Positions 135 to 63,692 of a DNA stretch of 64,000 nt are shown piece by piece; position 1 is the first letter of the stretch; every line of letters begins with the position of its first letter. The stretch is from a virus, in the IMG/VR virus record IMGVR_UViG_3300045988_182799; one strand, written 5' to 3'. Under the pieces are notes generated by a model. The model worked only from the letters and a program-made list of their open reading frames with translations, was not told the origin of the DNA and did no database searches. Position numbers and translations under genes: made by a program.

Positions 135-210
135 TGGTGGAAATAGAGGGATTCGAACCCTCGACCCCCTGCTTGCAAAGCAGGTGCTCTCCCAGCTGAG
201 CTATATCCCC
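135..210 (-). tRNA. tRNA-Ala(UGC): tRNA-Ala (anticodon UGC)
   Basis: Reverse complement reads GGGGATATAGCTCAGCTGGGAGAGCACCTGCTTTGCAAGCAGGGGGTCGAGGGTTCGAATCCCTCTATTTCCACCA. It has a 7-bp acceptor stem, GTTCGAATC T-loop, anticodon loop TTTGCAA and an encoded CCA. Confidence 0.85.
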
Positions 211-240
211 ATGATGGCGGGGCATCCCCGCCGGACAGTT

Positions 241-633
241 TTAGGTGTACTGGAAGTCGCCGTACTGCTTGACCTCGCGCTCCAGGTGGAGCGGAATGGT
301 CTTGGTGCTTCGCTGCGTGATGTCGCTACGTGCCACCAGAGTCTCGCTTACGCCTGCCGCCTGAAGAACTTCAAACAGATTGGAAGGGCCTGTACCAGCA
401 TAGCCCGCCGTCAGTCCGTTGACACGCATTGTAAACCCATGCAGATGCGGTGCCAGGCCAGAAATGAAATCGAGTTCAACAATGACCTCGTCACTCTTAT
501 CGTTCACACGTTTGACTGAGATAGCACGGATGTTCTGGCTCCCGAAGGTCTCAATCAGTTTCTTGGCTGCCGCTGCGGTTTCAATCGTGGATGTACCTTC
601 TACATTGATAATTGCCTGCTCCATTGGAATCAT
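241..633 (-). CDS. hypothetical protein (130 aa) between tRNA-Ala and tRNA-Thr
   Basis: Intact ORF with a strong RBS (GAAAGGAGAT) immediately upstream of the ATG. No recognisable motif. Confidence 0.55.
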   Translation of the reverse strand: MIPMEQAIINVEGTSTIETAAAAKKLIETFGSQNIRAISVKRVNDKSDEVIVELDFISGLAPHLHGFTMRVNGLTAGYAGTGPSNLFEVLQAAGVSETLVARSDITQRSTKTIPLHLEREVKQYGDFQYT

Positions 634-825
634 CTCCTTTCTACTTCAAGTTGTCATGCACTGTGGCAGATAACGCTCTGCACTGCGAGGCTTTACGTTG
701 CCCATTCGTGTTCGGTTCCGGCTACGACGACTTCCGTAAGGACTTAGCCAACCGCCAACAGGTGCATGCCCCCGTTGGAAGCTTCTTGGGCGGATTCTCA
801 AAGAGCGCGTCGCCCAATCGGACCG

Positions 826-901
826 TGGAGCTTAGTGGCAGATTCGAACTGCCCGCCTGCACATTACGAGTGTGCCGCTCTGCCTAATGAGCTAACCAAG
901 C
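826..901 (-). tRNA. tRNA-Thr(CGU): tRNA-Thr (anticodon CGU)
   Basis: Reverse complement GCTTGGTTAGCTCATTAGGCAGAGCGGCACACTCGTAATGTGCAGGCGGGCAGTTCGAATCTGCCACTAAGCTCCA folds as a 76-nt cloverleaf with anticodon loop CTCGTAA. The acceptor stem has one G-U pair. Confidence 0.75.
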
Positions 902-1187
902 ATGGCAGGATGTTTTATGCTTGTTATCATCCCAAATCAGGGCAGCCAACCCTGCATCAAGCACCATCCGGCAGCCACGCCGATGGATTCTGTATTGTAC
1001 CCTCTCCGCCGTTTTCCGGTCTCATTCGCGACTGATACTGGGACTTTCGGATACTCTCAGGCACAGCACCTGTTTGCCGATTCTTTTAGAGGCTGTCCAT
1101 TGGCATTCGGACAGCGGACCACAAGTGGACCATGCTCGCTTTATTTAGTGTCGTGCGTACGGTGACAGCGACGGTGGAGCGGGCAGC

Positions 1188-1262
1188 GGGATTCATTTCT
1201 ATTCACGCCACCCATGTGGGCAGCGACAATTGCTATACCCCGCGTGGTGGGTCACGTCTGGC
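1188..1262 (-). pseudogene. decayed tRNA-like remnant
   Basis: Reverse complement begins CGCGGGGTATAGCAATTG, nearly identical to the 5' end of the tRNA-Met at 2870-2943, and ends ...GAATCCCGCTGCCCGCTCCA. It has acceptor-like termini and a T-loop-like GAATCC, but no foldable anticodon arm. Confidence 0.25.
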
Positions 1263-1279
1263 TTTCGCTTTTGCGGCCT

Positions 1280-1474
1280 TTATTTTGCTTCGCTGTTTAT
1301 GTACCCAAACCAGCAGCTTTCGCAGCCAGCGAACCCCGCGCACCCTTCCTCGTACACGTCATTCCATGGCGGACATCTGAAATTCTTTTCAAAGACTTTT
1401 ACCATGTTCTTTTTGATATCTTCCACGGGTCCGCTGAACTTCATTCCTTTTGTCAATTCTTCAAAAACCGTCAT
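1280..1474 (-). CDS. small hypothetical protein (64 aa)
   Basis: The AT-rich 5' half encodes a Lys-rich peptide (MTVFEELTKGMKFSGPVEDIKKNMVKVFEKNF...). An RBS (GGAAGGAAAG) precedes the ATG, and hairpin element 1 sits just upstream. The C-terminal third is GC-rich and may be read-through. Confidence 0.35.
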   Translation of the reverse strand: MTVFEELTKGMKFSGPVEDIKKNMVKVFEKNFRCPPWNDVYEEGCAGFAGCESCWFGYINSEAK

Positions 1475-1489
1475 TTTTCTTTCCTTCCT

Positions 1490-1514
1490 TCTCGCCGCGT
1501 GGAGGCTACCAGCG
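1490..1514. other. conserved hairpin-loop element, copy 1 (partial)
   Basis: Contains GCCGCGTGGAGGCTACCAGCG, a 15/16 match to the core shared by copies 2-6. The flanking stem is weak. Confidence 0.4.
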
Positions 1515-1523
1515 TAGGGATAT

Positions 1524-1598
1524 TGGAGGAGTATATCGGGGTCGAACCGACGTTATCTGCTTGGAGGGCAGAGGTATTAACCGTTATACGAATACTCC
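1524..1598 (-). tRNA. tRNA-Gly(UCC): tRNA-Gly (anticodon UCC)
   Basis: Reverse complement GGAGTATTCGTATAACGGTTAATACCTCTGCCCTCCAAGCAGATAACGTCGGTTCGACCCCGATATACTCCTCCA. Anticodon loop is CCTCCAA. Confidence 0.85.
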
Positions 1599-2366
1599 AC
1601 AAGATTGCGGGTGAACCCTCATTTAGCCCCGCCATGATGTTCGTTTAGGAGGTAGTCGGCCCCGAACGCCATCTTTACACCACTTGACAATCTTGCGAAT
1701 CTCATCGCTGACTATGCGTGAGAATCCAAGAAAGCGCTTAGGTGTTGGTCAACTTCAAATCTTAGAGCCCTACCGTTACTTCTCTGTCAATTCGGGCAAA
1801 CGGTTTTCGATGGGCTACGTGTGTAAGACTGCGGCTTACTTACCAGCTGCCGTGCAGCAGTCTCGCCTATACGGCTGTGTCGCGTCTGGCTGCGCCCCGG
1901 CTTTACGGGGATGCTCGTACGTCTGCATGCTTGATGGGGCGGGATTTGTTGTTTCCGAACCGTAGTTCGAGAGGAAGCACTCGTCCACACAACTTCCTGG
2001 CCTTTAGGGATACCGCTCACACCGGGAATTGTGATGCGATTCCCACGATTGAAGACTTCGCCATGTCGCGGGTATTGACCGCAACAATGTTGCCCACTGC
2101 TCACCACGAGGAGGTTGTCTTCTGAGCAGTAGCGCGGATTGTGTGGAGCAGTCCGCGCAAGCAGCTTCCGCGTATTCCCTGCTGCTTGAGGGAGCTTGTT
2201 GAGCGTCCGCCGACGCCGTACCCCGGAGGGAACGTCCAAAGGCGTTTTGCAGTACGGAAAAGTTCGGTTTAGAGCCATGAACTGGGCCAAGGACTGCTTA
2301 CCTTGTCTGGTTTGCCCTCCAGATTGGGTTGAGAGCATTCGTCAGCGACTGTAGTAATCGTTGTCC

Positions 2367-2400
2367 ACCACCCGCCGCGTGGAGGCTGTCTCATGGGTGG
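2367..2400. other. conserved hairpin-loop element, copy 2
   Basis: CCACCC-[GCCGCGTGGAGGCTGTCTCAT]-GGGTGG: a 6-bp stem enclosing the conserved 21-nt loop. Confidence 0.55.
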
Positions 2401-2523
2401 CTGGGCACGTCGGATGTTTCCGGCGTGCCCAGATAGGCGCTACCTATCGTGTCGTTCTAAGGCGGGAGCTGCCCGCCATCAGGTTTACCTGTGCATCGGA
2501 TTATCCCTTTCACTTATGCGGCC

Positions 2524-2624
2524 TGTCGGACGTAATTAGTGCATAGGCGTTCTCCTTTGTTCAGATTTTGACATCGGACGCGGTAATTACTGCATCGGAG
2601 TGCCCTCCCTGTTAGATTTCGACC
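2524..2624. repeat. two tandem degenerate ~50-nt repeats inside the ncRNA candidate
   Basis: Unit 1 is TGTCGGACGTAATTAGTGCATAGGCGTTCTCCTTTGTTCAGATTTTGACA. Unit 2 is CATCGGACGCGGTAATTACTGCATCGGAGTGCCCTCCCTGTTAGATTTCGACC. Aligned by eye at roughly 70% identity. Confidence 0.5.
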
Positions 2625-2758
2625 TGTTTAACGTCCGTGTCAGGACGTGTTCTGGATGGGTGGTGTCACACCACCGTGTTCCGTGCTTACGCGTCGCACC
2701 TGTACTCCACTATTACGCCTTATCGCGCGATTGACGTGTTCCCTTGTACTACACCCAG

Positions 2759-2835
2759 TGGCGACTCGTGCCGGACTCGAACCGGCGACCTCCAGCGTGA
2801 CAGGCTGGCGTTCTAACCATCTGAACTAACGAGCC
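2759..2835 (-). tRNA. tRNA-Asp(GUC): tRNA-Asp (anticodon GUC)
   Basis: Reverse complement GGCTCGTTAGTTCAGATGGTTAGAACGCCAGCCTGTCACGCTGGAGGTCGCCGGTTCGAGTCCGGCACGAGTCGCCA. Anticodon loop is CTGTCAC. Confidence 0.85.
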
Positions 2836-2869
2836 ATATATGACCGATTTAGCGTCGCGGCCGAGACGA

Positions 2870-2943
2870 TGGATACGGGGATGGGACTTGAACCCACAAC
2901 CACCAGCGTATGAGGCTGGTAAGCTACCATTGCTATACCCCGT
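2870..2943 (-). tRNA. tRNA-Met(CAU): tRNA-Met/Ile2 (anticodon CAU)
   Basis: Reverse complement ACGGGGTATAGCAATGGTAGCTTACCAGCCTCATACGCTGGTGGTTGTGGGTTCAAGTCCCATCCCCGTATCCA. Anticodon loop is CTCATAC. Initiator, elongator or lysidine-Ile identity cannot be decided by eye. Confidence 0.8.
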
Positions 2944-2992
2944 GTCAATAACAAGACATTGGCCGCAAGAACCTTCAAAACTTGCGTTGTCC

Positions 2993-3027
2993 ATCCCTCG
3001 CCACGCGGAGGCTGTCTTGTGAGGGAT
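2993..3027. other. conserved hairpin-loop element, copy 3
   Basis: ATCCCTC-[GCCACGCGGAGGCTGTCTTGT]-GAGGGAT: a 7-bp perfect stem with a 21-nt loop. Confidence 0.55.
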
Positions 3028-3204
3028 TCTCGGAGATTGCGCAAGGATGTGTAGAACTATACTGGTGTAGTATGATGTGCTGCAAGCAGCTACAATGCAC
3101 ATTCTCCGAGGTTGTTATTACCGTCTATCAAGTGAGGGTATGTAGCACTATAGTAGTTGTGATGTGTGTCGGGATGACACTTACAACACTTGATATTCGG
3201 TATA

Positions 3205-3280
3205 TGGCGGGTCGTACAGGGCTCGAACCTGTGACATCTTGATTAACAGTCAAGCGCTCTGCCGACTGAGCTAACGACCC
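3205..3280 (-). tRNA. tRNA-Asn(GUU): tRNA-Asn (anticodon GUU)
   Basis: Reverse complement GGGTCGTTAGCTCAGTCGGCAGAGCGCTTGACTGTTAATCAAGATGTCACAGGTTCGAGCCCTGTACGACCCGCCA. Anticodon loop is CTGTTAA. Confidence 0.85.
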
Positions 3281-3324
3281 AGAAATAAGACATTTGCCAC
3301 GGGGAGCTCAATACCCGTGTTACC

Positions 3325-3357
3325 GTCACCGCCGCGAGGAGGCTGTCTTATGGTGAC
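3325..3357. other. conserved hairpin-loop element, copy 4
   Basis: GTCACC-[GCCGCGAGGAGGCTGTCTTAT]-GGTGAC: a 6-bp perfect stem with a 21-nt loop. Confidence 0.55.
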
Positions 3358-3450
3358 ATAGCCCGCAAGATGTGTGTATAGCATCGTATCAAGAAGTTAC
3401 GATTCATCAAGCGGGATTTTGGATTTCAACGGAGGAACGATGAAAACCAA

Positions 3451-3526
3451 TGGAGCTTCCGGTGGGACTCGAACCCACAACCTACTGATTACAAGACAGT
3501 TGCTCCGCCTGTTGAGCCACAGAAGC
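3451..3526 (-). tRNA. tRNA-Thr(UGU): tRNA-Thr (anticodon UGU)
   Basis: Reverse complement GCTTCTGTGGCTCAACAGGCGGAGCAACTGTCTTGTAATCAGTAGGTTGTGGGTTCGAGTCCCACCGGAAGCTCCA. Anticodon loop is CTTGTAA; the anticodon stem has one non-WC pair at its base. Confidence 0.75.
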
Positions 3527-7195: not shown

Positions 7196-7873
7196 TTATT
7201 TATTTGCAAAGTAGGTGTCTGTGTCAGCTCTCGCGGCTCTCGCCTCAATATCAGCTTCGTTCAGATACCGAACGCTTTTGAATGTGTAGTTGGTATCGCC
7301 CTTTGTGCGAACATAGATGCCGCGCTTTGCGTATGTCAGTCCAGGCGTCATATCGCTGTCAGCTGTAGTCAGCAGTTTGATAATCTGATGCTCACCTGCA
7401 TCATCAACCACGCAAAGACTCACATCCGCATTGCCGTCACATGGGTAATCTTCCGGCAGCTTCACTTCGTAATCCACCACTACGAGTTCCGGGTTTTCGA
7501 TGCAATCTCGCAGCTTATCAAGAGCTGATTCTTCAGTTCGCAGTACAGAAAGAGAATTACTGAGCGCAATGGTGTTGCTGATGTAATCTTCATTTTCTGT
7601 TTCGGTAGTGATTTTAGTGATGCGCATTTCAATGTCATGCCATCGCCCATCGGTCAAAGAGCCATTTGAAACTGTTCCCCAGTCGCCGAGAGCGATAAGG
7701 TTATTGTTCTCGCCTCGCACCGGTTCTGTTTCCATACTGGTTTGAGCTGGAAGGCCTAGCGTTTCGCTGCTTTCAGCCGTTGCCACAGGGAAATCGGCGG
7801 GCAGCGTGCTGACGGGATAGCAGGCAGTCAAGGCAACAGCAAGCGCCGGAATAATCAAAAGCAGCTTTCTCAT
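7196..7873 (-). CDS. lipoprotein (225 aa)
   Basis: Signal peptide MRKLLLIIPALAVALTAC with a lipobox Cys. ATGA overlap with the upstream HTH gene suggests translational coupling. Confidence 0.65.
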   Translation of the reverse strand: MRKLLLIIPALAVALTACYPVSTLPADFPVATAESSETLGLPAQTSMETEPVRGENNNLIALGDWGTVSNGSLTDGRWHDIEMRITKITTETENEDYISNTIALSNSLSVLRTEESALDKLRDCIENPELVVVDYEVKLPEDYPCDGNADVSLCVVDDAGEHQIIKLLTTADSDMTPGLTYAKRGIYVRTKGDTNYTFKSVRYLNEADIEARAARADTDTYFANK

Positions 7874-8394
7874 TGTTCCTTCGCCGCCTTCTTTGTTTTC
7901 TTTCTTCCCCTTTTACGGTGGATTCCAGCTTTGTGCATGATGTCGTATCCACATGTGGTACAGAAACCATACTCCTTAGCAAGTGCCTGAATTGACTTCT
8001 GCGGGTTCTCTCTGACTGCTTGGATATACCGTTCCTCTCTTTTCAGGCGTTCTTTCTTTGCCTTTGTCATCACATCAGAATCCCGCTGGCAGGTATATTT
8101 CGGGTCTACCTGCTTGATGACGCTATAAATCGTTGCGCGGTTCATGTTGTATTCTTTCGCCAGCTCAACGGCCGTTACACCCTTGCTGTACTTGCGAGCG
8201 ATTTCTTTGTCTCGTTGTTTCTTCCATTTGTGGAAGTCCATAGAGCGTTCGTTACGACTCTCTTCACGAGATACTCTATAGCAGATATGGGTTGATACAT
8301 GATGCTTTGCGGCTGCGTCTTTGATAGACATACCACTCTTCAAGTCCTCGACAATGAGTCGGTTTCTTTCTGACATAGCTTCTTTGTCAATCAA
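7870..8394 (-). CDS. DNA-binding protein with three helix-turn-helix-like segments
   Basis: Repeated segments (SIKDAAAKHHVS..., VTAVELAKEYNMNRATIYSVIKQ, SIQALAKEYGFCTTCGY) resemble sigma70 region-4 / Mor-type HTH. First gene of the operon, behind promoter a. Confidence 0.6.
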   Translation of the reverse strand: MIDKEAMSERNRLIVEDLKSGMSIKDAAAKHHVSTHICYRVSREESRNERSMDFHKWKKQRDKEIARKYSKGVTAVELAKEYNMNRATIYSVIKQVDPKYTCQRDSDVMTKAKKERLKREERYIQAVRENPQKSIQALAKEYGFCTTCGYDIMHKAGIHRKRGRKKTKKAAKEQ

Positions 8395-25214: not shown

Positions 25215-25402
25215 GTTCTCGCAGTGAGCGTTTTAGGTCCGCTCAAGACCCTATTCGTCTCTACCGAAGCAACGCTATCAGCGCTGTTCAGTATCTATTA
25301 GTATATGGTGGTCGCATATCGTGTCAACTGCATATCGCGGCCATGCAACAGAAAAAGGAGCCTCACCTGCTTCTTGCAGGCAAGACTCCTCATTCGTATG
25401 GT

Positions 25403-25729
25403 TTAGCCTTCCACGTCGAAGGTGTAACCCTTTACGGTCATAGTGACCAGGCCGCCACGAGACTGACACTTTACGCCGTCCAGGCTGACATCGAGAGTCA
25501 GGCTGGAATCTTCGTTGTCCAGCCAGCTGGGCCGCATGTAGGCAGCGAGGTCGTGCAGCGCACCGATGACGTAAGTAACCAGGTCCTCATCATCCAGAGT
25601 CTGAGCAATCACATCGTTTTCCTTGTCGGCGGGAAAGCCGATGGAAGCGGTGATGCTGTCAAGGGTGTTGTCGTCCTTGGAGCGGAAAGCGGTGGCGCTG
25701 AACTCAATCAGGTTAGGGTTGGTGTTCAT
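25403..25729 (-). CDS. small highly acidic protein, paralog 1 (108 aa)
   Basis: Start placed at MNTNPNL (RBS AAAGGAGAA). It is 45-50% identical to the downstream paralog over its full length. Confidence 0.6.
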   Translation of the reverse strand: MNTNPNLIEFSATAFRSKDDNTLDSITASIGFPADKENDVIAQTLDDEDLVTYVIGALHDLAAYMRPSWLDNEDSSLTLDVSLDGVKCQSRGGLVTMTVKGYTFDVEG

Positions 25730-25777
25730 AGTGGTATTCTCCTTTGTATATGTTATTGATTTCCTGTGGTACTTATT

Positions 25778-25805
25778 ATTGTATGCGGTTCGCATAAGGC
25801 GTCAA
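25778..25805 (-). promoter_or_regulatory. promoter f of the conserved-spacer family
   Basis: Minus strand TTGACG-cctTATGCGAACCGca-TACAAT. Confidence 0.5.
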
Positions 25806-25916
25806 CCGTCGCACCTGCGGTTTTTGCAGCTACGCTCTCTTATCCGTTTAGCAGCTACGCAACAAAAAAAGGAGCCCCACCCGCTTTCACAGGCAAGACC
25901 CCTAATTTGGCCCTGC

Positions 25917-26237
25917 TTAATCTTCGAGGCCGAAGGTGAAGCCGTTTTCTTTCATAGCAACGAGACCGCCGCGTGACTGAGCCTCGCTGCCGTCGATGGA
26001 AATATCCAGCGTCAGGCTGGTATCTTCGCCGTCCAGCCAGTTGGGCCGCATATCGCTGATAAGGTTGTACAGTGCGGCAACAGCATGAACAATCAGCTTT
26101 TCCTCGCCCAGTGCATTTCCAATCACCTCATCGTCGTTCTCTACGGGAACGCTGATGGATGCCGAAAAACTTTCGAGGTTGTTGTCGTCATCATTGCGGA
26201 ATGCGGTAGCTTCAAATTTCAGAGTGCAAGTATTCAT
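25917..26237 (-). CDS. small highly acidic protein, paralog 2 (106 aa)
   Basis: MNTCTLKFEATAFRNDDDN... It has the same RBS and 5' UTR (caataacatatacaaaggaga) as paralog 1. Confidence 0.6.
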   Translation of the reverse strand: MNTCTLKFEATAFRNDDDNNLESFSASISVPVENDDEVIGNALGEEKLIVHAVAALYNLISDMRPNWLDGEDTSLTLDISIDGSEAQSRGGLVAMKENGFTFGLED

Positions 26238-41330: not shown

Positions 41331-43022
41331 TTATTTGTTGGGGCCCGTCTTCTTTTTATACGGATTGGTTTTGTTGGTGGTAGCATGCTTCTCAGCTGCC
41401 TTGGCGTGAGCATCCATGATGGCCTTTTCCTCGTCCGTAAAATCGGGACGGAAAGAAGTTTTATCTTCGCCGGTGATAGGGTCTTTCTCATGGAACATCC
41501 AACCATCTTCGACACGCTCGGAGGTGATGTGAGATTTTGGCTCGTCCAACTCCACACCATCGATATGGATGTTGCGGTCCGTCTTAGCCTGGATGCTATT
41601 GGCACGAACAATCTCACCCATGTCGATACCGGTTGCCTCCTTCACCGTCTGCATGGTCTGGGCCATGAGCACCGGGACGTTACCAGACACACCGGATACG
41701 CCGGAAGCATCACCACCGATGATAGACACCTTGTCGATGCTGGACAGGGGCTGGGCCACGCTCTTGGCGATGTCAGGCAGAACCTTGATAAGCATTTCGG
41801 CAACAGCTGCGTCGTTGTACTGTTTGTAGGCTTCGGCTTTCTGTTTCATAGCCTCTGCCTCAGCCAGACCTTTCTGGCGAATGGCTTCAGCCTCAGCCTT
41901 ACCGACCATCTCGATGCCTTCTGCTTCCTGCTGCTTAGCGAACTTTTGTGCTTCGGCTGCACGCTCCGCCTCGTATTTTTTGGCTTCTGCTTCTTTCTGA
42001 CGGCGATAAAGGTCTGCATCAGCCTGTTTACGGACTTCTGCGTCCAGTTTACGCTGCTGGACTTCGGCTTCCTGCGCAGCAAGGTCAACCATCTTCTTCT
42101 GCTTGGCAATCTCTGCGTCAGCCTCAGCTTCTTTGATTTCCTTGGCACGGAGGTTCATCTGGATACGACCGGCGGCATCCGCATCGGCCGCCGCCTTGTC
42201 AGCTTCCGCCTTCAGCTTTGCCTTGGCGAGCTGCAACTCGTTGTTGCGCTGTGCGATAGCGGTCTGAGCTTCGACTTCCTTGGCATTTGCAGCCATCTCA
42301 GCATCTGCTTTGGCGCAAGCCACGTCACGGGCCGCCTGGGCACGAGCAATCTCAGCCTGCTTCTTCACCAGTTCTTCCTGCTCGATACCGATAGCTTCGA
42401 TGACACCGTGATTGTGGCCCTGTGCATCAATCGCGTCCCTAATGTCTTGAACATTGAAGGTCACGACCTCAAGGCCCATCTTGGCGAGGTCTGGACGAGC
42501 GTTCTCAATGACGCTCAGTGCCATCTGCTTGCGGTTTGTCAGAATCTGGTCAACGGTCATGTCGGAGACAATCTCACGCAGGTTGCCCTGCAGAACGTCA
42601 TTGACCTTGTCGTTGATGCCCTGCTCATTCATACCAAGGAAGTTCGAGATAGCTGCCTGCTGGCGGGACATGACATACGCCTTGGCGTCCTTCAGACCAG
42701 ATGCTTTGACCTCATCGTCCAACACAGTGGAGTTCTCACTGTAAACCTGAATCGTTACGACAGAATCAATCCAGAGCGACACGCCATTCTGAGTCTTAAC
42801 GCCTGTTTCAGGGGTCTTGACATCGATTTTCAGCAGCCGCATGTTCAGCTTGTCTGCTCGTTGCAAGACAGGAAGCACAAACGTGCCTTTACCGGATACT
42901 ACTTTAGGCTTTGACAACCCAAAACCGGTCACGACGATAGCCTCCGTCGGAGGGGCCTTCTTGTAGCACAGAAAGCCGAAGATGATAATAAGGACTGCTA
43001 CAATCCCGATGATAAGCGCCAT
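41331..43022 (-). CDS. flotillin / SPFH (band-7) family protein
   Basis: N-terminal TM (ALIIGIVAVLIIIFGFL), SPFH core, long Ala/Glu/Lys-rich coiled coil (AEAQKFAKQQEAEG...) and a C-terminal flotillin-like tail. Confidence 0.8.
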   Translation of the reverse strand: MALIIGIVAVLIIIFGFLCYKKAPPTEAIVVTGFGLSKPKVVSGKGTFVLPVLQRADKLNMRLLKIDVKTPETGVKTQNGVSLWIDSVVTIQVYSENSTVLDDEVKASGLKDAKAYVMSRQQAAISNFLGMNEQGINDKVNDVLQGNLREIVSDMTVDQILTNRKQMALSVIENARPDLAKMGLEVVTFNVQDIRDAIDAQGHNHGVIEAIGIEQEELVKKQAEIARAQAARDVACAKADAEMAANAKEVEAQTAIAQRNNELQLAKAKLKAEADKAAADADAAGRIQMNLRAKEIKEAEADAEIAKQKKMVDLAAQEAEVQQRKLDAEVRKQADADLYRRQKEAEAKKYEAERAAEAQKFAKQQEAEGIEMVGKAEAEAIRQKGLAEAEAMKQKAEAYKQYNDAAVAEMLIKVLPDIAKSVAQPLSSIDKVSIIGGDASGVSGVSGNVPVLMAQTMQTVKEATGIDMGEIVRANSIQAKTDRNIHIDGVELDEPKSHITSERVEDGWMFHEKDPITGEDKTSFRPDFTDEEKAIMDAHAKAAEKHATTNKTNPYKKKTGPNK

Positions 43023-54967: not shown

Positions 54968-55072
54968 AATTGCCTTTCCGGCTGTTCACTTCAGCCCAAT
55001 TCTTGTGTATTCCAAAGTGCTGCTTTATAGTTCTTGATGAACTTATATCAGGCAACAGCTTCATCCCATCTC

Positions 55073-55306
55073 TTATTTCTTCGTTTTCTTCCCGGCTTCT
55101 TTCAAAATAGTCACCTTCGTCTTCGGATGCAGCTTATCCTTTACAGCTTCATATTCTTCTGTCGTCCCCTCAAAGGTGATTTTACTACCTCCTGCTACCA
55201 TCGCTTTTTGCATATCAAGAGAGTCAATGCACTGTGCGGATTCCGTATGAACTCCAATGATAGTTCCTGTTCCGCGTCCTCTCGGACTTATCACTTCATA
55301 TACCAT
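55073..55306 (-). CDS. small hypothetical protein (77 aa)
   Basis: RBS AGGAGG. Its 5' region overlaps a GCTACGC repeat. Confidence 0.5.
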   Translation of the reverse strand: MVYEVISPRGRGTGTIIGVHTESAQCIDSLDMQKAMVAGGSKITFEGTTEEYEAVKDKLHPKTKVTILKEAGKKTKK

Positions 55307-55490
55307 GTTTGGCTACGCCTCCTAAAAAGAAAAAGAACGACGGCTACGCAACCAGCGACCAGTTTCATGGTGGCAGCTACGCTTCCGTCGTTCATAAACT
55401 CCTTTGCTATTGGCAGCGATGCTTTCATCCTCTGCCTACGGTTCGTTCCACGCGCACCTACGGTTTCACCCGCCGGGCTACGCTTTAATC
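55307..55490. repeat. intergenic cluster of six GCTACGC / CCTACGG heptamers
   Basis: Copies at ~55312, 55343, 55376, 55435, 55457 and 55477, spaced 31, 33, 59, 22 and 20 nt (about multiples of a helical turn). Confidence 0.6.
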
Positions 55491-55673
55491 ATCGTCGTCT
55501 TTGAGTGCGTTATAGGCAAAGAACCCATAAAGGCCAAAGAAGTACAGCGTAATAACCCAAGTGGGAAGGTATTCAGTCACGCCGGTCAGCGTGAAGACAA
55601 CAGCCATAATACAAGCCGTTACCAGAAACTGCGAATCGACGTACAGCACCAATCCGATGTTAAAGCCTTTCAT
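55485..55673 (-). CDS. small hydrophobic protein (62 aa) with DDDD C-terminus
   Basis: Two TM-like segments ending ...NALKDDDD. Confidence 0.45.
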   Translation of the reverse strand: MKGFNIGLVLYVDSQFLVTACIMAVVFTLTGVTEYLPTWVITLYFFGLYGFFAYNALKDDDD

Positions 55674-55675
55674 CT

Positions 55676-56341
55676 TTATGCCTCCTCAAAGTAGTCTCTC
55701 AGCGAGTCAGAGACTTTAACTCGTACAGTATCATCCCACGAGTCGTATTTGTTCTCCGGATACGAAACATCTTCAACCGAACTCAGCTTCCAGGTAGAAA
55801 CAGGTTCACCATCTTCGATGCGAACAATGGTAGGAGCGCCGATACGCTTCTCTCCAATTTCGTACTTGTTCTTATCCTTATCGCTTATCGTGTAATCTGC
55901 CAGGTAGTCTTGCAGCCAATTGAGAAGTTCATCATACCCTTCCCCTGCTGCTTTTGTCATCACAGGAGCACCAGTATTCTCGTCGTATGCGTAGATGTCG
56001 CGGTACTCATCGATTTGGCAGTAGTAAACGGTCTGGTTCTTTTCTTTGGCAATACTGGTAAGTTCAGGAATCAGGTTGCGGCAGTAAGGGCAGCGAGGAT
56101 ACGCAAAGATAACGATGCCATCTTTGATTTCTCTCGCCTGTGTCGCAGTCACTTCAACATAGGTGTTATTCCAGGGAACACCTACGGTTTGATAGGTATA
56201 GTCAGCAGCTACGCTCGGCTTCTGGTTGTTGTATCCAGAGTAGCTTCTTGCAACTACGGCTCCATCACTACTGGCTACGCTAATTGCAGCAGCCATTGCC
56301 AGCGATGCAACTACGTAAGGAACAATGAATTTCTTAGTCAT
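55676..56341 (-). CDS. secreted thioredoxin-fold protein with CxxC (CPYC)
   Basis: Signal peptide MTKKFIVPYVVASLAMAAAISVAS and IVIFAYPRCPYCRNL. Its 5' coding region contains several GCTACGC-type heptamers. Confidence 0.6.
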   Translation of the reverse strand: MTKKFIVPYVVASLAMAAAISVASSDGAVVARSYSGYNNQKPSVAADYTYQTVGVPWNNTYVEVTATQAREIKDGIVIFAYPRCPYCRNLIPELTSIAKEKNQTVYYCQIDEYRDIYAYDENTGAPVMTKAAGEGYDELLNWLQDYLADYTISDKDKNKYEIGEKRIGAPTIVRIEDGEPVSTWKLSSVEDVSYPENKYDSWDDTVRVKVSDSLRDYFEEA

Positions 56342-56354
56342 TTCTCAAAACCTC

Positions 56355-56425
56355 AAGTGCCTACGGTCAGGAGCTACGCTTTGAGGTTTGTAGTTCTTCG
56401 GCTACGCTTCGGCAGCTACGCTCCT
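56355..56425. repeat. 5'-UTR cluster of four GCTACGC/CCTACGG heptamers
   Basis: Copies at ~56360, 56373, 56401 and 56415, between the promoter at 56457-56485 and the start of the thioredoxin-like gene. Confidence 0.55.
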
Positions 56426-56456
56426 TCCGTGTTTCGTCTTCTTTATTTTCATCGCC

Positions 56457-56485
56457 ATTATACCACGAATTCGTAATTGTCTCAA
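56457..56485 (-). promoter_or_regulatory. sigma70 promoter with family-like spacer (TTGAGA-caattACGAATTCGtgg-TATAAT)
   Basis: Perfect -10 and a 17-nt spacer containing ACGAATTCG. Confidence 0.5.
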
Positions 56486-56547
56486 TTGTGGTCCTTCGAT
56501 GTTCATAAAATAGTAATATTTGCTTTTGAGGTTTTGGACGTGCGCTA

Positions 56548-56838
56548 TCAGCTACGCTTCTTTTGAATGAGACTTAAAAGAGACTCTTTACTCTGTCGTG
56601 GAGGCGGCGGCAAAAGTGATGGAACGAGAATCGGGTCTTTCTCGTCTTCTATCTCTTCAAATTTCTCATCATCTCCGTCAAAGAACCAACTTGATTCCTT
56701 TACAGCTTCATCCGTTGCTACAAGGTCCTGCGTTATCGTACAGTCATCGCAATAGACTTTCGGGACGCCTACTCTACCCTCGAACTTCTTCTTGCATATC
56801 GGGCATACTCGAATTGCTATCATTGTTCTTCCTCCCAA
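56548..56838 (-). CDS. small zinc-ribbon protein
   Basis: CPICKK...CDDC pairs and an acidic/Pro-rich tail. Confidence 0.45.
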   Translation of the reverse strand: MGGRTMIAIRVCPICKKKFEGRVGVPKVYCDDCTITQDLVATDEAVKESSWFFDGDDEKFEEIEDEKDPILVPSLLPPPPRQSKESLLSLIQKKRS

Positions 56839-58196
56839 TACCCAGAATGAGTCAGCGGGTTAATACCATCGCGGCGGATTCCGTAGTCATCATATTTGTG
56901 TGCAGGCATAGGCGTGTTGTTCATATCTTTGAAGTCAATGAGTTTCTTACCCATAACTCTGCTGATTCCATCTTGCGTTCCTCTTTCACATACAATGTGA
57001 TAGCGCTCTTTGTTTGCTCTTTGGAATACAAGCTCTTCAAGCTCAATGATGGGAAAGATGAGCGTCTTATCTTCTTGGTCTTCGATGTAGGCTTCCACAT
57101 ACTCTCGCGATGAAACGGTGGTGTATCGTTCAGTCATTTCTGAAAGCCACATCTCAATCATACTGTTTAGGTCGCTTCGTGTTAGCGTTACTGTTCTGGA
57201 GAGAAGTTCTACGCCGAGCGTGTTGGTTGGAACGAAGTAGTTGCATGCGTACACCTGTTCGAGATTCGCAAGAGTCATCAGCTTATCCGTTATAGTGCTT
57301 CTGCTTGCGTTCTCGACTACCTTGCCGTACTTGTTGCCTGTGATGATTTTGGGAATCATGGCGCAAGTCTTTCCAATGATGACGCTTTTGGGTACAGACG
57401 CACACACTTCAGCAAAATCATCATTGGCTTTTGCTGCGTCACTGCTCTCAAAGAGCCTGGATATAGCTGCGACTCTGCGGCGCTCATAGGAGATAATCCA
57501 ACGCATCAACCTGTCCAGCGTGCAGTAAACGTAGAAGATTCCTTTGCAGTTTACTATCACTCCTACCAGACGGCTCATGCCAGTTGTGTATTCCTCGCCA
57601 ACTGTCTGTTCAGCCTTGATGGTTGCAGAGAGTTCGTCAGAGAGAAACAGCAGGCCTTTATCATAGAAGTAGTCGTCCATGAATCTTGCGTAGTCATCCG
57701 CATCTGCATTCAGAACATTTTCAAGACGGATATGTTCTTCCTTTGCGAGTTTGATGCCTGCCGCTCGACACATGCAGCTTACTACTTCCATACGGTTCAG
57801 CCGCCTGCCGTTTTCACCCTTGAGTCTCCGCTTCATAGTAGCTCGCTTTTGCCCATCCAGCGCATCACGAGCCGTGGAGCGGATGTACTTTACTCCATCT
57901 GGTGTTATACGCAGATGGTTAGATTCATCCTTGCGAAATACCTCTACATAGCCGTGCTTGACTGCATTTCGTACTGCCAGCGTAACGCTCTGATACGGCA
58001 TATCCGACAGTGCAATCACAAGCTGCCTGCGCTGAATGGAATCCACACTGTAGAGATAACACAGAAGCCTTTGCTCGTTTGTCATTTTGTCACCTACTAT
58101 TTGTATATAAGAAACGCTATGCCGTACCACCTGATACGCCGAAAGTCTATTACTGCGCCAAAAAACAATGAAAGGATACAACAATTTAAGGAGCAT
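56820..58196 (-). CDS. hypothetical protein (~420-458 aa)
   Basis: Intact ORF. The start is likely MTNEQRLLCYLY. Confidence 0.55.
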   Translation of the reverse strand: MLLKLLYPFIVFWRSNRLSAYQVVRHSVSYIQIVGDKMTNEQRLLCYLYSVDSIQRRQLVIALSDMPYQSVTLAVRNAVKHGYVEVFRKDESNHLRITPDGVKYIRSTARDALDGQKRATMKRRLKGENGRRLNRMEVVSCMCRAAGIKLAKEEHIRLENVLNADADDYARFMDDYFYDKGLLFLSDELSATIKAEQTVGEEYTTGMSRLVGVIVNCKGIFYVYCTLDRLMRWIISYERRRVAAISRLFESSDAAKANDDFAEVCASVPKSVIIGKTCAMIPKIITGNKYGKVVENASRSTITDKLMTLANLEQVYACNYFVPTNTLGVELLSRTVTLTRSDLNSMIEMWLSEMTERYTTVSSREYVEAYIEDQEDKTLIFPIIELEELVFQRANKERYHIVCERGTQDGISRVMGKKLIDFKDMNNTPMPAHKYDDYGIRRDGINPLTHSGYWEEEQ

Positions 58197-58253
58197 AAAA
58201 ACAGCATCCTGAAAATGTTGTATTTTGCAGTCCCCAAAATTGTTGTATCCGAG

Positions 58254-59027
58254 CTACGCTTCAATCCATCTTGTGATGTCTGATTTTTCGCACAAAATCA
58301 CATCCAGATAGGGTCCTTCTGAATCCTCTATGGCGGTATAGACGAAGCTCATTTGCTGCCAACCGTCGCCGTGCTTCAATACACGGCTGATAGCATTGGT
58401 GATAGCTCCTGTATAGACGTTATTATTGTCTATCGGCATCTTACCGCCTGGTCGGATACCTCTGCGAAATACCAGATACACAAGTCCTGATGGCACGTTG
58501 ATAGGCCCATTCTTTGAGATGTATTCTGTCACAGCTGCTTCGGTAATAATGTCGAATTCTGCATCCAAATAATACTGTCCGGTGTCGTCTTTTTCTTTTG
58601 CTTTGCGGCTGTACCACTCATAGTGAAATGGTGGCAAAAACGACTTATAGCGTACCGCCAGGAGCGCATGTTTTGGTGCTGATACTGAACAGAAATCATC
58701 TGGAATAGTGCCCATTCCAGCATCTTTTTTATACGGAACAGGCTTTTCTCGGCCTTGGAAAGATGCTAAAATCGAGCGTTCGGATTTCAAAAGTTCGATT
58801 GAAACACTATTCAGGATAGATGCTGAAATCTTGCTGAGTGGCATATCATCTTGGATTTGGCTCATCATAGCCGAAGCGTTTTGGACGTGTTTCTTTACAT
58901 ACCCTGCCGTATCATGGTAAAGAACCGGCTTCTCAGATGGTGAATCGGAACGGTTGGAAGCAGGTTTTTCGCTCGGCTTGTTTTCTTCGATGTATCGTTT
59001 GTAATCAATCAACGATGGGAACGCCAT
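58254..59027 (-). CDS. hypothetical protein (257 aa)
   Basis: Intact ORF. Confidence 0.55.
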   Translation of the reverse strand: MAFPSLIDYKRYIEENKPSEKPASNRSDSPSEKPVLYHDTAGYVKKHVQNASAMMSQIQDDMPLSKISASILNSVSIELLKSERSILASFQGREKPVPYKKDAGMGTIPDDFCSVSAPKHALLAVRYKSFLPPFHYEWYSRKAKEKDDTGQYYLDAEFDIITEAAVTEYISKNGPINVPSGLVYLVFRRGIRPGGKMPIDNNNVYTGAITNAISRVLKHGDGWQQMSFVYTAIEDSEGPYLDVILCEKSDITRWIEA

Positions 59028-59879: not shown

Positions 59880-62552
59880 TTAGAGTCGGACCCCACCTTT
59901 GGCGTTTTCAGCAGCCAGGCGTTCCTGTTCTTCTCTGTGCTGCTTCTCTTTGAGGGCTTTCTCTTGCAAATAGAAGCTCTTTGCATCTGTCGTGATTTCC
60001 TGCTTTTCATAAGGTGCGGCAACAAAGTCAACGAACAGCTTGGCGGAAGCGGCACAGACCAGACCTTGACCACGTTGCAGGTTGGAGACATTTTCCATCT
60101 CCGCATCAGTCAACTGAATGGCCGACTGCAATGCCTGCGCTTCAGACGGGATAAGGTGCATGATGATTTTGGTGTCAGCGTTACCGATGATTGCCTTACC
60201 ATACTTGCCGCCTTTATACTCGTAGAACTGAGAGATGTCCTGCGTCATAGCGAAAGCCGAACCACCGTAAGCACGAATCGTACGGAAAATTTCTACAACG
60301 TCCTCTGCTGCCATTTCGTTCGAGTCGGTGCCAATCAGCTTCCAGCACTCGTCGATAAATACGGCCTTGCGCTTCGTACGGTCCTCTTTAATTTTGGTCC
60401 AGACAAAGTCAAGAACAACAAACATCGACATTGTAAGGATTGCGCCTTTCATGCCATTGAAGTCAAACACGATGTATTTTGCTTTCAGGTCAACATTCGT
60501 GGGACGGTTGTAGCATGCCATAGAACCTGTAATCAGCGGGTTCAGGATATTGCAGATGCGATGGAGTTCAGGAACATTCTGCATCTCTTTTTGGAGGTCT
60601 TCCAGCAGAGGCATCTTTTTATAACCGCCGTGTTCTTTATCGAGAATCGATTCGTTATCATTGGTGATGCCGAAGTCCTTATAGCATCTGTAAAGACTCG
60701 TATCAATAAGCTGTTCCTCTTCCTGTGTCATATCCTTAACGACCAAGTGCAGGAAGGACTTGATGGTGTGAATTTTCTTTGTAAGCAGAGAACCAGTAGA
60801 CTCGTAGTCATCCAGTTCTTTAGCATCCGCATCGTCCGGCACGCGGATGTCCATGATGTTGATGCTATTGATGGAAGACGGGTCCATACTGATGAACTGG
60901 CCGTCAACCGCCTTACATCCGCCGCCATAGTCTTCCAAGCCCTTCAGCGGAGAGATGACGAATACTTGCGTATCCATCTCAGACAGACGCAATGCAAAGA
61001 GCTGTGCGGTAAAGGTCTTGCCATAACCGGAAGAACCGAGGATAACCGCGTTTGCATTGGCGTGAACGTCCGTATCGAACATGTCGATAGTAACAAGGGA
61101 GTTGTTGGCACGGTTTGTACCAATCATAACGCCATCAGGGTCCTGCATTTCAAAGGAAATGAACGGATAGCAAGATGCCACACCAGAGGTCAGTACGTTG
61201 CGCTGTGCTCGGCGCTTGATGTCCTTATGGAGCTTGCCAAGAGGAAGCAATGCAGACTCAAAGCACTCTTCCATCATAAAGTTCGCACGGCGAATCTTCA
61301 TGCCCTGGCCTTTAACGCGCTTTTCAAGGGAATTGTATTTGTATTCCAGCTCATCCAAACTATCACCAACAACGGTGATAAGAATACTCATGTAATAGAA
61401 TTCCTCACCGCTGGAGAGACCTTTCAGCATGTATTCACTGGAAGAAATCTTTTCCATGCGGGCATGATAATCCGAGTCGGTATCATGGCTATCCATTGCA
61501 TTGGCACGGCTCAAACGAAGCTGCGTACTGATTTTGTTGTAGACTGCTTCCCGTGACTGATGTTCGAAGAAAACATCCATATCAACACCCTCGCCAGCGT
61601 TGACGAAAGTAGCAATCCAGCCAGCATAGACACGCTGATTGTAGCCGGTGGACGGGATATAGGCGAAGGTGTAGAACTTTCCATCAATGACAATATAGTC
61701 ATAATGGGTAAAATCAATCCAGTCTGGCGCAATCAATTCCGTGGCATTCAGAGAGGTCTTTACGCCGTTCTTATCCGCTTCGGTATAGCGTTCAATGATG
61801 GGCGTAACGTGGTCGTGGAACGTAATAGTCTCACTCTTGCGACGGTTCAGCATCTGATAGAACAGCTGGTGTATACCGGCATCTTCGTTGCGGCTGCTGT
61901 CACCAAGCGCCGGGATAAAGATGTTCCCACACTGTTCCATGTGGGAACGTACGTTGGCAGCCATTGCGTTCAGGTCCGCCACAACCATATCAAAGTTAGA
62001 GCCATCATTACTGATGGTGCGCTGAAACTCGATGATGATAAAGAAGCGGCGCGTAATGCCAACAGACAACGCCGTTTTGCGAAGCAGGCCGATGTAGGCT
62101 TTTAGCATCCGCTTGCGCTTGATGTTCGTTTCTTCACGATAATAGGAAGTGACTGTAGCAATCGTCTTTTCGACATCTGCCTTACGAGCAAAAGTCTTGA
62201 ACTGAATGTTGACCGGCACTGCCTTGAAAGTCTGATAGAAGAGTGAGATGATGCGGTTCTGAGTTTCGGCGTCCATGTAACCGAAGTTGATGGGCCGAAA
62301 CTCAAGAATCTTCACATAACGGTGGTCTTTAGTAATGATTACGCCGTTATAAATATCTTGAACAGGAATGATGCGTTGTGTACTGCGAACGATTTGATAC
62401 CGGTCTGCATTAGCTTGCATCTCTTTGTCGATACGCTTACGTTCGGCGTTGGCAATCTCTTCACGCTCTTTCTTTGTTAGACGAACGCTTTCCAAGCTGT
62501 CCCCAACAACGCCATTCGGAACAGCTTGCTGTTTGTTTTTCTTTCTAAACAT
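59880..62552 (-). CDS. VirB4/TraE-family type IV secretion ATPase (890 aa)
   Basis: Walker A ILGSSGYGKTFTA, Walker B KAVFIDECWKL, and length/architecture typical of Firmicutes conjugative VirB4 (Tn916 Orf16 / TcpF-like). Confidence 0.9.
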   Translation of the reverse strand: MFRKKNKQQAVPNGVVGDSLESVRLTKKEREEIANAERKRIDKEMQANADRYQIVRSTQRIIPVQDIYNGVIITKDHRYVKILEFRPINFGYMDAETQNRIISLFYQTFKAVPVNIQFKTFARKADVEKTIATVTSYYREETNIKRKRMLKAYIGLLRKTALSVGITRRFFIIIEFQRTISNDGSNFDMVVADLNAMAANVRSHMEQCGNIFIPALGDSSRNEDAGIHQLFYQMLNRRKSETITFHDHVTPIIERYTEADKNGVKTSLNATELIAPDWIDFTHYDYIVIDGKFYTFAYIPSTGYNQRVYAGWIATFVNAGEGVDMDVFFEHQSREAVYNKISTQLRLSRANAMDSHDTDSDYHARMEKISSSEYMLKGLSSGEEFYYMSILITVVGDSLDELEYKYNSLEKRVKGQGMKIRRANFMMEECFESALLPLGKLHKDIKRRAQRNVLTSGVASCYPFISFEMQDPDGVMIGTNRANNSLVTIDMFDTDVHANANAVILGSSGYGKTFTAQLFALRLSEMDTQVFVISPLKGLEDYGGGCKAVDGQFISMDPSSINSINIMDIRVPDDADAKELDDYESTGSLLTKKIHTIKSFLHLVVKDMTQEEEQLIDTSLYRCYKDFGITNDNESILDKEHGGYKKMPLLEDLQKEMQNVPELHRICNILNPLITGSMACYNRPTNVDLKAKYIVFDFNGMKGAILTMSMFVVLDFVWTKIKEDRTKRKAVFIDECWKLIGTDSNEMAAEDVVEIFRTIRAYGGSAFAMTQDISQFYEYKGGKYGKAIIGNADTKIIMHLIPSEAQALQSAIQLTDAEMENVSNLQRGQGLVCAASAKLFVDFVAAPYEKQEITTDAKSFYLQEKALKEKQHREEQERLAAENAKGGVRL

Positions 62553-62561
62553 ATCGCTTTG

Positions 62562-63692
62562 TTACTCCTCGTCGTCAAAGATGGAGAACGAATCTGCGGA
62601 GAAGTCTCCATTGTGGCTGTTATAGATTTGCGGCTTAGCTTTCAGCGGACGAACAAGCGGTCCTGCTTGATTCTTCATACGCTCATTTGTGATGATGCGC
62701 GGTACGAACGGGCCATTGGGGGTTGCTGCTTCTTCGTCAAAGCTGATGTCAATTTCTTCCGGCTCGACGGATGCCATGCCATCCAGCAATGTCACATCAT
62801 CAAGACTCATTTCAGGAGTCTCGGTAATGGTTTCGACTTCGTCCAGCACAACATTCATCGTCTGTTCTTCGGATTGAGCAGGAATAAAGTTGGGGTCAGT
62901 CTGTTGCTGCATCTGCTGCATAGCGACTAACTTGGCACGATACTGAGCAGCTTTAATGCGTTCAGCCTTTTCGATACGGCGCTTAATGCGTTCCTGAACC
63001 ATCTTTTCGTGCTCTTCTTCTTGACGCTTCTTAGCTTCGGCTTCTTCCTTATGCTTCTGCTTCAAAGCAGCACGCGCAGCACGGCGTTGGTTGCGAGGCA
63101 AGGAATTGATAAACTCCTTTTCTTCCTTTGCACGTTGCTTTGCTTCTGCTTTGAGTTCTGCTTTTGTTTTGAGCTCATCAGGCTTTTCTACGAAGTCCTC
63201 ATCGTCATCGTAGTAAATCTGTAAATCATCAGCGGTAATATCTGCACTAATCGGTCCGTCTCCGCCGCCAAGTACCTTCTTCTTAAAGTTTTCCCATGCT
63301 TCTTTCAGCTTCTCCTTCGGGAGCATGCCATTTTCCTTCATTAGGTAGTCGGGTTCGAGCTCTGTTTTAATACGCGGATTATACTTGGAAATTCTACGAC
63401 TTTTGCGGAAATGAATTACGTGAGCCAAGAACTCAAAGAAGCTGTCATCCCCTACGCCGTGCGACACCGCTACGAATACTCCGGCACACACGATTGCGGT
63501 GTAGGCTACGGTAGACTCCACATCCCAGCCAAGTTGTGTCCACCCGTAAATAAAGATTCCAAGAAATGGAATCGCTACCACAACACCTTCGATGAAGTTC
63601 TTGGTTTTGAACGCACCACCAAAGACGTAGCCGGTATCGAACGAGTTCTTCGGAATCATGTAAACATTTGGCTGCTTTTCTTCTTTGTTCAT
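62562..63692 (-). CDS. membrane protein upstream of VirB4 (VirB3/PrgI/TcpE-like position) with long charged coiled-coil tail
   Basis: Start at MNKEEKQ (RBS GGGGAGGA). Two TM segments (FIEGVVVAIPFLGIFIYGW, AIVCAGVFVAVS), then a long Lys/Glu/Arg-rich region. Confidence 0.55.
   Translation of the reverse strand: MNKEEKQPNVYMIPKNSFDTGYVFGGAFKTKNFIEGVVVAIPFLGIFIYGWTQLGWDVESTVAYTAIVCAGVFVAVSHGVGDDSFFEFLAHVIHFRKSRRISKYNPRIKTELEPDYLMKENGMLPKEKLKEAWENFKKKVLGGGDGPISADITADDLQIYYDDDEDFVEKPDELKTKAELKAEAKQRAKEEKEFINSLPRNQRRAARAALKQKHKEEAEAKKRQEEEHEKMVQERIKRRIEKAERIKAAQYRAKLVAMQQMQQQTDPNFIPAQSEEQTMNVVLDEVETITETPEMSLDDVTLLDGMASVEPEEIDISFDEEAATPNGPFVPRIITNERMKNQAGPLVRPLKAKPQIYNSHNGDFSADSFSIFDDEE

Follow-up and report, generated by a model that had tools for sequence, protein, structure and literature searches.

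In Bacillus, TRAP at the trp leader and HutP at the hut leader exert attenuation by binding RNA at short UAG-containing repeats. RfaH, which acts at ops, and the specialised NusG paralogues LoaP, UpxY and ActX use an oriented 12-nt element of the non-template strand in the leaders of long operons, including conjugation operons. The sponge RNAs CsrB and RsmZ carry many short motifs in or between small hairpins and end in a strong terminator, and the targets of CsrA lie near the Shine-Dalgarno sequence and in the early open reading frame (ORF). Short direct-repeat arrays that are bound by small DNA-binding proteins include the Rco heptamers of pLS20, the omega heptads of pSM19035 and the 12-bp TubR-tubC iterons. 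Control of Gram-positive conjugation operons has been described for the pLS20 zipper attenuator (PMC13401043), conAn (PMC8191782), long-stem terminators (PMC10325885) and canT of Tn916 (PMC11658703). Here we analyze 64,000 nucleotides of the IMG/VR virus record IMGVR_UViG_3300045988_182799 (the whole stretch is referred to as the window), in which the heptamers GCTACGC and CCTACGG are repeated in two blocks between 55307 and 56560, inside a type IV secretion system (T4SS) gene cluster. The motif, which is AAGCGTAGCTGC on the coding strand, reaches a density ~100-fold above chance around the gene of one secreted, thioredoxin-like (Trx-like) protein of a large, uncultured plasmid-like element from the gut. 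Its arrays bracket a single transcription unit, which runs from the promoter and the 5' untranslated region (UTR) through the Trx-like gene and a 62-aa gene to a 3' block. The repeats are a real, conserved and strongly non-random cis element that is most likely regulatory rather than an origin.

By analogy, the arrangement most resembles TRAP/HutP attenuation, RfaH/ops recruitment and the Gram-positive conjugation attenuators and long-stem terminators, and it appears to fall outside the definition of each. As with TRAP and HutP, for which occupancy decides between termination and read-through, the nascent RNA carries short UAG repeats both ahead of an intrinsic terminator and within it. Their repeats, however, are triplets spaced by 2–4 nt, whereas here units of ~12 nt are spaced by 13–66 nt, and copies here are also found in an ORF and upstream of promoters. 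Pfam scans of the window ORFs revealed no TRAP or HutP family member, and the 77-aa protein encoded beside the terminator has no fold match. The ops element (GGCGGTAGCGTG) has a two-base-pair hairpin with a G·A pair, acts upstream of terminators and resembles AAGCGTAGCTGC, including the Y-G step past the hairpin; it is normally single-copy, whereas arrays here have 2–9 copies with a loop that is one base shorter. Like ops, the element here is oriented and lies in a leader upstream of a terminator, but it is multi-copy and in three contexts is upstream of predicted promoters. The conjugation-operon attenuators control termination and read-through inside the T4SS cluster of a Bacillota element, and the terminator stem here is unusually long (~24 bp); each of those systems, however, relies on one long structured RNA in which no short motif recurs. 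No similarity to them was seen at the sequence level, and no ConAn1-like gene was identified. With the operator and centromere arrays, the repeats here share a length of a heptamer to 12 bp, direct orientation and a grouping into two clusters close to plasmid promoters, and an adjacent winged helix superposes on TubR; those arrays, however, are contiguous or regular, are not tied to the transcribed strand and lie beside partition NTPase or regulator genes, none of which holds here. CsrB and RsmZ share the irregular multi-copy short motif and the strong terminator at the end, and CsrA target leaders share the placement of sites close to the Shine-Dalgarno sequence and early in the ORF, but their motif is GGA rather than CGUAG, and the Pfam scans of the window ORFs reported no CsrA family member.

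The window has 21 copies of GCTACGC where 5.8 are expected (0 of 100 shuffles reached 21), with 17 of the 21 on the + strand, and CCTACGG occurs 9 times against 3.2 expected, with all 4 of its + strand copies in the two blocks. The 14 exact copies of either heptamer on the + strand of 55307–56560 amount to 11.2 per kb, as compared to 0.11 per kb on the + strand outside this region and 0.14 per kb in the opposite orientation. In a comparison of heptamers, GCTACGC is by far the most clustered of the window. Because nearly all window genes are encoded by the minus strand, the sense-strand form of the motif is GCGTAGC or CCGTAGG, and this is the form of the clustered copies. An earlier note on this DNA had reported the enrichment from 16 copies, and all 16 positions exist; 14 are exact, and two within the Trx-like ORF are one-mismatch variants (56254 ACTACGG and 56311 ACTACGT). 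The k-mer and orientation check that it proposed agrees with its observation, as the heptamer is strand-biased and not uniformly frequent. A pair that it placed at 25838/25862 is present at 25829 and 25854, and a lone copy given as 58249 is at 58253. Four + strand copies that it did not mention (19545, 19597, 19756 and 28246) are all within coding sequence and look like chance occurrences. The spacings, described there as near multiples of 10–11 bp, show no such phasing (Rayleigh p = 0.7–0.9 at periods of 10, 10.5 and 11 for 47 spacings pooled from the window and its relatives); they are irregular and range from 13 to 66 nt.

The consensus of 47 distinct copies from the window and its relatives extends to a full unit of ~12 nt, A-A-[G/C]-C-G-T-A-G-[C/G]-Y-G-C (A-A-S-CGTAG-S'-Y-G-C), in which position +7 is a purine in 0 of 47 copies. 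Positions 0 and 6 of the heptamer covary: among clustered NCGTAGN copies there are 58 G..C, 15 C..G and 2 A..T, and S and S' within arrays are complementary in 73 cases and mixed in none. When loops with complementary flanks were compared, only GTA was enriched and GAA, GCA and GGA were not, and the flanks beyond the heptamer are sequence-specific. A purely structural GNA-loop hairpin is rejected since enrichment is limited to the GTA loop; the element is sequence-specific with an internal pairing constraint and is not a generic hairpin. The only two mixed-S cases of NCGTAGN both lie in an unrelated coding patch near 63.4–63.5 kb. In this patch (63394–63511), which is inside a 393-aa gene, there are five CTACG cores with mixed flanks; it is probably coding-driven and outside the arrays.

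Human-gut contigs of ~230–250 kb encode a Trx-like protein identical to that of the window, which is indexed in 794 blocks of a public assembly collection. In syntenic relatives (lineages denoted by L and a number), whose Trx-like proteins are 55–66% identical, the motif occupies equivalent places and is without exception on the sense strand, so that a comparison called for by the earlier note, the corresponding region of related elements, also yields the heptamer. The non-coding sequence between copies diverges among relatives while the motif stays. In L186, for which 21 kb were examined, 12 of 13 copies are on the sense strand and 11 of these 12 fall inside the 1.1-kb Trx locus. Individual copies turn over between lineages. 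One in-ORF copy reads AGC-GTA-GCx (S-V-A) in the window, L011 and L013, and AAG-CGT-AGC (K-R-S) at the homologous place of L018, which has gained a further downstream in-ORF copy in an otherwise conserved protein segment. The chromosomal Trx homologues of L014 and L016 have neither the motif nor the corresponding residues. The different frame in L018, the new copies in conserved segments and the chromosomal homologues without the motif together argue for selection that acts on the nucleotides of the in-ORF copies rather than on the protein. Among 15 near-identical contigs, 2 of 41 variable columns are motif columns, as compared to 2.9 expected, a comparison that is uninformative.

Block 2 includes the promoter of the Trx-like gene, a strong one of the sigma-70 type, with 11 of 12 consensus matches and an extended −10 TG; the extended −10, TGGTATAAT, is invariant across relatives. 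The copy that precedes it lies ~100 nt upstream of the transcription start. In the 5' UTR of the window's lineage, a predicted 9-bp hairpin at 56347–56389 holds copies 56373 and 56360 in its loop and contains the Shine-Dalgarno sequence GAGG in its 3' arm; the hairpin is not statistically significant (z = −1.05). The in-ORF copies translate as S-V-A, S-V-A and T-V-G. A 16-codon mini-ORF, MKIKKTKHGRSVAAEA, at 56402–56452 starts 4 nt past the −10 hexamer and would be nearly leaderless; it ends at the UAG of the second 5' UTR copy and, in three lineages, at a motif UAG. The string ATGAAAATAAA is kept in relatives and at a further locus described below (type A). The Trx-like protein has weak matches to Thioredoxin, PedC/BrcD and TrbB.

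Block 1 is conserved in L011, L013, L018 and L022 and starts at the stop codon of the 62-aa gene. Its RNA fold has z = −3.9, and its layout is three upstream copies followed by a terminator with one copy in each arm (55376–55382 and 55343–55349). The predicted terminator hairpin has −34.9 kcal/mol as RNA (z = −5.5) and is followed by U5CU5; the corresponding hairpins of three other lineages have −30 to −37 kcal/mol, with z between −3.2 and −5.5 over the four lineages. The consensus fold of these four contains 3 compensatory pairs and many G·U pairs. As DNA the same hairpin has only −15.1 kcal/mol, because GCGUAGCU pairs with GGUUGCGU through G·U. Judged by its predicted hairpin and U-tract, both kept in relatives, 55324–55393 is an intrinsic (Rho-independent) terminator. 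The ribosome-binding site of the 77-aa gene is located ~10–20 nt past it, and since no conserved promoter was found between the terminator and this gene in the compared lineages, the 77-aa gene would depend on read-through. The 77-aa protein, for which no family match was obtained, is 83–88% identical between lineages whose Trx-like proteins are ~62% identical. The copy at 55312 is limited to the window's lineage and is polymorphic among near-identical contigs.

Elsewhere in the window, the stop-codon copy of the 257-aa gene is at the same place in L011, L013 and L186. The pair near 25.8 kb resides in a spacer between paralogous genes, flanked by a strong terminator (25870–25903) and a TTGACG-16-TACAAT promoter (25778–25805). 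The paralogues, acidic genes at 25917–26237 and ~25403–25729, are each followed by a near-identical terminator (15–16 bp stem) and a sigma-70-like promoter. Of the two paralogue spacers (25355–26237), the first alone carries the motif. A pattern scan of IMG/VR returned mostly unrelated tandem repeats, together with two types of non-tandem array with the extended motif. Type A starts where an HD-domain gene stops, at its stop codon, and lies ahead of the promoter of a gene for a DUF6112 membrane protein; type B covers the end of a phrog_3136 gene and likewise has a promoter after it. Both occur in related contigs, and one type shares a 268-kb contig with a Trx locus. Directly past the type B array of L110 (5300–5445) is a TTGCAC-17-TAGAAT promoter and, ~100 nt farther on, a clean intrinsic terminator, an arrangement suggestive of a small RNA or an attenuated leader.

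A stricter pattern applied to 185,579 representative genomes found no such array, and its 14 matches are all unrelated tandem repeats; because the arrays are family-specific and absent from these genomes, the element itself probably encodes the factor that reads the motif. DNA similarity searches of phage and plasmid collections gave no match, no homologues of the Trx-like and 77-aa proteins were found in PLSDB plasmids, and the T4SS region of the Subdoligranulum variabile megaplasmid contains no arrays. The nearest annotated replicons by VirB4 (37–39% identity) are Oscillospiraceae megaplasmids. In the literature, GCGTAGC/GCTACGC was found in fungal mitochondrial tandem repeats alone, and no paper naming the motif was found. 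Rfam 15 covariance models run over the whole window gave only 7 tRNAs at gathering thresholds and, at E ≤ 5 in the region 55000–56900, nothing but one chance snoRNA match.

Several other identities for the repeats were considered and rejected. Clustered regularly interspaced short palindromic repeats (CRISPR), repetitive extragenic palindromic (REP) sequences and miniature inverted-repeat transposable elements (MITEs) do not match, as only ~12 nt are conserved, the sequence between copies differs and lengths vary. For promoters of extracytoplasmic function (ECF) sigma factors, with −10 CGTA, the spacers misfit, and a sigma-54 promoter in the 3' arm of the terminator would have a GG-to-GC spacing that is one base short, as judged by eye. 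Suppressor tRNA or stop-codon recoding through the UAG of the motif was dismissed given that the window's 7 tRNAs are ordinary. The repeats do not fit a plasmid centromere of the parC, parS or tubC kind, since the Pfam scans revealed no partition NTPase (ParA, ParM or TubZ) and spacing is irregular. The 77-aa protein was rejected as the motif reader (AlphaFold2 predicted local distance difference test score of 62, no Foldseek match at E ≤ 0.001 and no PDB sequence match).

The reading that we favor, tentatively and at somewhat less than even confidence, is that the repeats are family-specific, strand-specific cis-regulatory arrays that are read single-stranded on the sense strand, either as nascent RNA or as non-template DNA. 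It is preferred because of the fixed orientation, the UTR, ORF and 3' UTR positions, the integration into an RNA-specific terminator, the pairing constraint and the unphased spacing. All Trx-locus copies in relatives are on the gene strand, and copies are positioned in the 5' UTR, in the early ORF, directly after stop codons and in terminator arms. Spacing that is irregular and unphased is as expected for sites on a flexible single strand. Two suggestions of the earlier note, arrayed protein-binding sites and an RNA–protein interaction in a 5' UTR, both sit well with a motif that is conserved, fixed in orientation and located in the 5' UTR, in the 3' UTR with its terminator and at the ORF start. 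In the mechanism we propose, the conserved bases of A-A-S-CGUAG-S'-Y-G-C would be displayed to an element-encoded factor by a minimal hairpin, a GUA triloop on a stem of two base pairs. Occupancy of the sites could then set how much transcription stops at the terminator, giving high Trx and 62-aa output, and the same occupancy would set read-through into the 77-aa, DUF6557 and phosphoesterase genes. Occupancy may also control the initiation of Trx-like translation; in the window's lineage, the predicted hairpin with two sites in its loop occludes the Shine-Dalgarno sequence. That this constitutes an undescribed system of giant plasmid-like elements of the Oscillospiraceae type, in which many C(GUA)G triloops recruit an element factor unlike NusG, TRAP, HutP and CsrA, switch a long-stem terminator and partition the expression of the T4SS cluster, is an extension that we consider rather unlikely as a whole. 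If the sites control termination or translation, they would provide a handle on the regulation of secretion and transfer genes in a very widespread family of uncultured gut elements, and they define a short, testable recognition element; if they are ordinary operator sites, the arrays represent a routine plasmid regulon.

Several observations weigh against reading the sites on a single strand. The mini-hairpin is worth only −0.4 to −0.7 kcal/mol in the nearest-neighbor model, and apart from the terminator the RNA structure of the arrays is no better than that of shuffles (z = 0 to −1.7). The Fisher test for pairing of positions 0 and 6 among clustered NCGTAGN copies (p = 1e-13) overstates independence, because the copies are related by descent. 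L018 has no copies in the Trx 5' UTR, with 8 or 9 in block 1. Arrays of types A and B precede predicted promoters, and the 25.8 kb pair would be transcribed only by read-through because it is just past a strong terminator and 23 nt before a promoter. No RNA-binding protein that might read the motif was found in the window. Neither the window ORFs nor a phmmer search of ~400 kb of family sequence, some of it redundant, yielded an NGN/KOW (NusG/RfaH-like) protein, a search that left out ~175 kb of the element and the host genome.

There is a serious rival, which we regard as possible though on balance doubtful: double-stranded operator arrays, in which an element DNA-binding protein binds 12-bp direct repeats near T4SS-associated promoters, causing repression or activation, possibly through looping between block 2 and block 1 (~1 kb) or as a roadblock. 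The most obvious such protein is the 421-aa product with an N-terminal winged-helix domain, a candidate reader if the motif acts as double-stranded DNA, whose conserved gene neighbors the locus in all lineages; given how common winged-helix domains are, this adjacency is weak evidence, and the superposition of the domain on TubR, AspA and MarR is generic. At the Trx locus, at the 25.8 kb pair and at both the type A and the type B loci, four contexts in all, arrays adjoin sigma-70 promoters, and the 25.8 kb pair sits in a terminator–promoter spacer. However, the densest and most conserved block is located ~0.9 kb past the promoter and forms part of an RNA-specific terminator. The turnover of sites with retained cluster density is typical of transcription-factor site clusters, and the absence of the family-specific arrays from the representative genomes would suit an element-encoded DNA-binding protein. 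A duplex binder would nevertheless have no obvious reason for an orientation that is fixed relative to transcription in every context, duplex recognition does not explain the complementarity of S0 and S6 in a 7-bp core that is too short for two half-sites, and helical phasing is not seen.

Two further explanations are less likely than operator arrays. The first, which we hold to be improbable, is a role as single-stranded DNA in replication or conjugative transfer, with GNA-triloop mini-hairpins on the G-rich sense strand acting in priming, as a single-strand origin, as accessory sites of the origin of transfer or as nuclease blocks; it includes the iteron origin proposed in the earlier note. 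Hirao and Yoshizawa reportedly described unusually stable DNA mini-hairpins, d(GCGNAGC), which the two-base-pair stem and G-N-A loop would resemble. In favor of this role are the covariation of S0 and S6, which supports a stem, the strict strand specificity of the motif, the G-richness of the sense strand over the whole window and the location within a T4SS gene cluster. Yet GTA alone among the GNA loops is enriched, the flanks are sequence-specific and several arrays per element are found at gene boundaries tied to promoters and terminators. Known conjugative systems usually transfer the strand that serves as template for their transfer genes; by this general rule the strand transferred would carry GCTACGC and not the GNA loop. 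No Rep or relaxase was recognized nearby, and the 421-aa protein, a generic winged helix, has no RepE-like match. Iterons are expected to be regular, phased repeats of ~17–22 bp, in contrast to the ~12-nt unit and the spacing found here. Computed in 2-kb windows, G+C is 0.47–0.48 over 54–58 kb, and the cumulative GC skew, which the earlier note had suggested examining, falls steadily across the region with no switch; in the sequence itself no long AT-rich tract or unwinding region is visible. An origin with iterons is thus unsupported, because of the irregular spacing, the failure to find a Rep gene in the window, the generic nature of the winged helix, the steady skew and the presence of several arrays per element.

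The other, which we give very little credence, is a self-pairing RNA building block without a reader that spreads by local duplication and forms terminators or alternative hairpins, or else a small selfish repeat. CGUAGCUGCG is a palindrome if G·U pairs are allowed, predicted folds pair the two terminator-arm copies with each other, as they do the second and third copies of the type B array, and L012 has a partial second block 1 near an IS605 OrfB gene. This duplicate (L012 5260–5420) has 4 copies, lacks the lower stem and U-tract of the terminator and is ~800 bp from the IS605 OrfB/TnpB-like gene. However, the CC..GG flavor breaks the palindrome yet keeps the YGC tail, copies 13–14 nt apart cannot pair together, copies are kept within coding sequence in different frames, arrays fold no better than shuffles and, unlike in REP or MITE units, the sequence between copies is not conserved.

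Table 1. Positions of the motif arrays and associated features in the window.
Feature	Position	Strand	Details
Copy pair and variant	25814–25860	−	Exact copies at 25854 and 25829; CCGCAGG variant at 25814
77-aa protein	55073–55306	−	Directly downstream of the terminator
Block 1	55307–55484	−	Non-coding, between the 62-aa and 77-aa genes; copies at 55477, 55457, 55435, 55376, 55343 and 55312
Motif copy preceding the ATG of the 77-aa gene, after its Shine-Dalgarno sequence	55312–55318	−	
Long intrinsic terminator (predicted)	55324–55393	−	59-nt hairpin at 55393–55335 (~24 bp, many G·U) and U-tract at 55334–55324
62-aa hydrophobic membrane protein	55485–55673	−	Follows the Trx-like gene in the bracketed unit
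Trx-like secreted protein, 221 aa	55676–56341	−	CPYC motif; first gene of the bracketed unit
Three exact in-ORF copies	56181–56280	−	At 56274, 56208 and 56181, within the first 160 nt of the Trx-like ORF
Trx-like 5' UTR, ~110 nt	56342–56456	−	4 motif copies, at 56415, 56401, 56373 and 56360
Sigma-70-type promoter of the Trx-like gene	56457–56485	−	TTGAGA, 17-nt spacer, TGgTATAAT
Single copy	56551–56557	−	Overlaps the last codons of the upstream 91/96-aa zinc-ribbon gene
421-aa protein, N-terminal winged-helix domain	56820–58085	−	Two genes upstream of block 2
Single copy	58253–58259	−	Its TAG is the stop codon of the 257-aa gene

The element further encodes a VirB4-like ATPase (59880–62552), a coupling protein just past the window end, a sortase and a Y-family polymerase. 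The 96-aa zinc-ribbon, 257-aa and 421-aa proteins have no PDB sequence matches. IMG/VR lists family contigs of 100–389 kb as viral, despite their T4SS genes, and the same T4SS module is also present on contigs of 39–41 kb. Seven minus-strand tRNA genes (Ala, two Thr, Gly, Asp, Met and Asn) lie within 3.4 kb at 135–3526; clusters of this kind are seldom expected on conjugative plasmids and are more a trait of large phages. The ORF at 7870–8394 and one more match Mor, the regulator of the phage Mu middle operon, and one of them combines Mor with several helix-turn-helix domains. A cluster of the short repeats TCTGCTT and TCAGCCT at ~41860–42100, inside a flotillin-like gene, is probably a repetitive coding segment.

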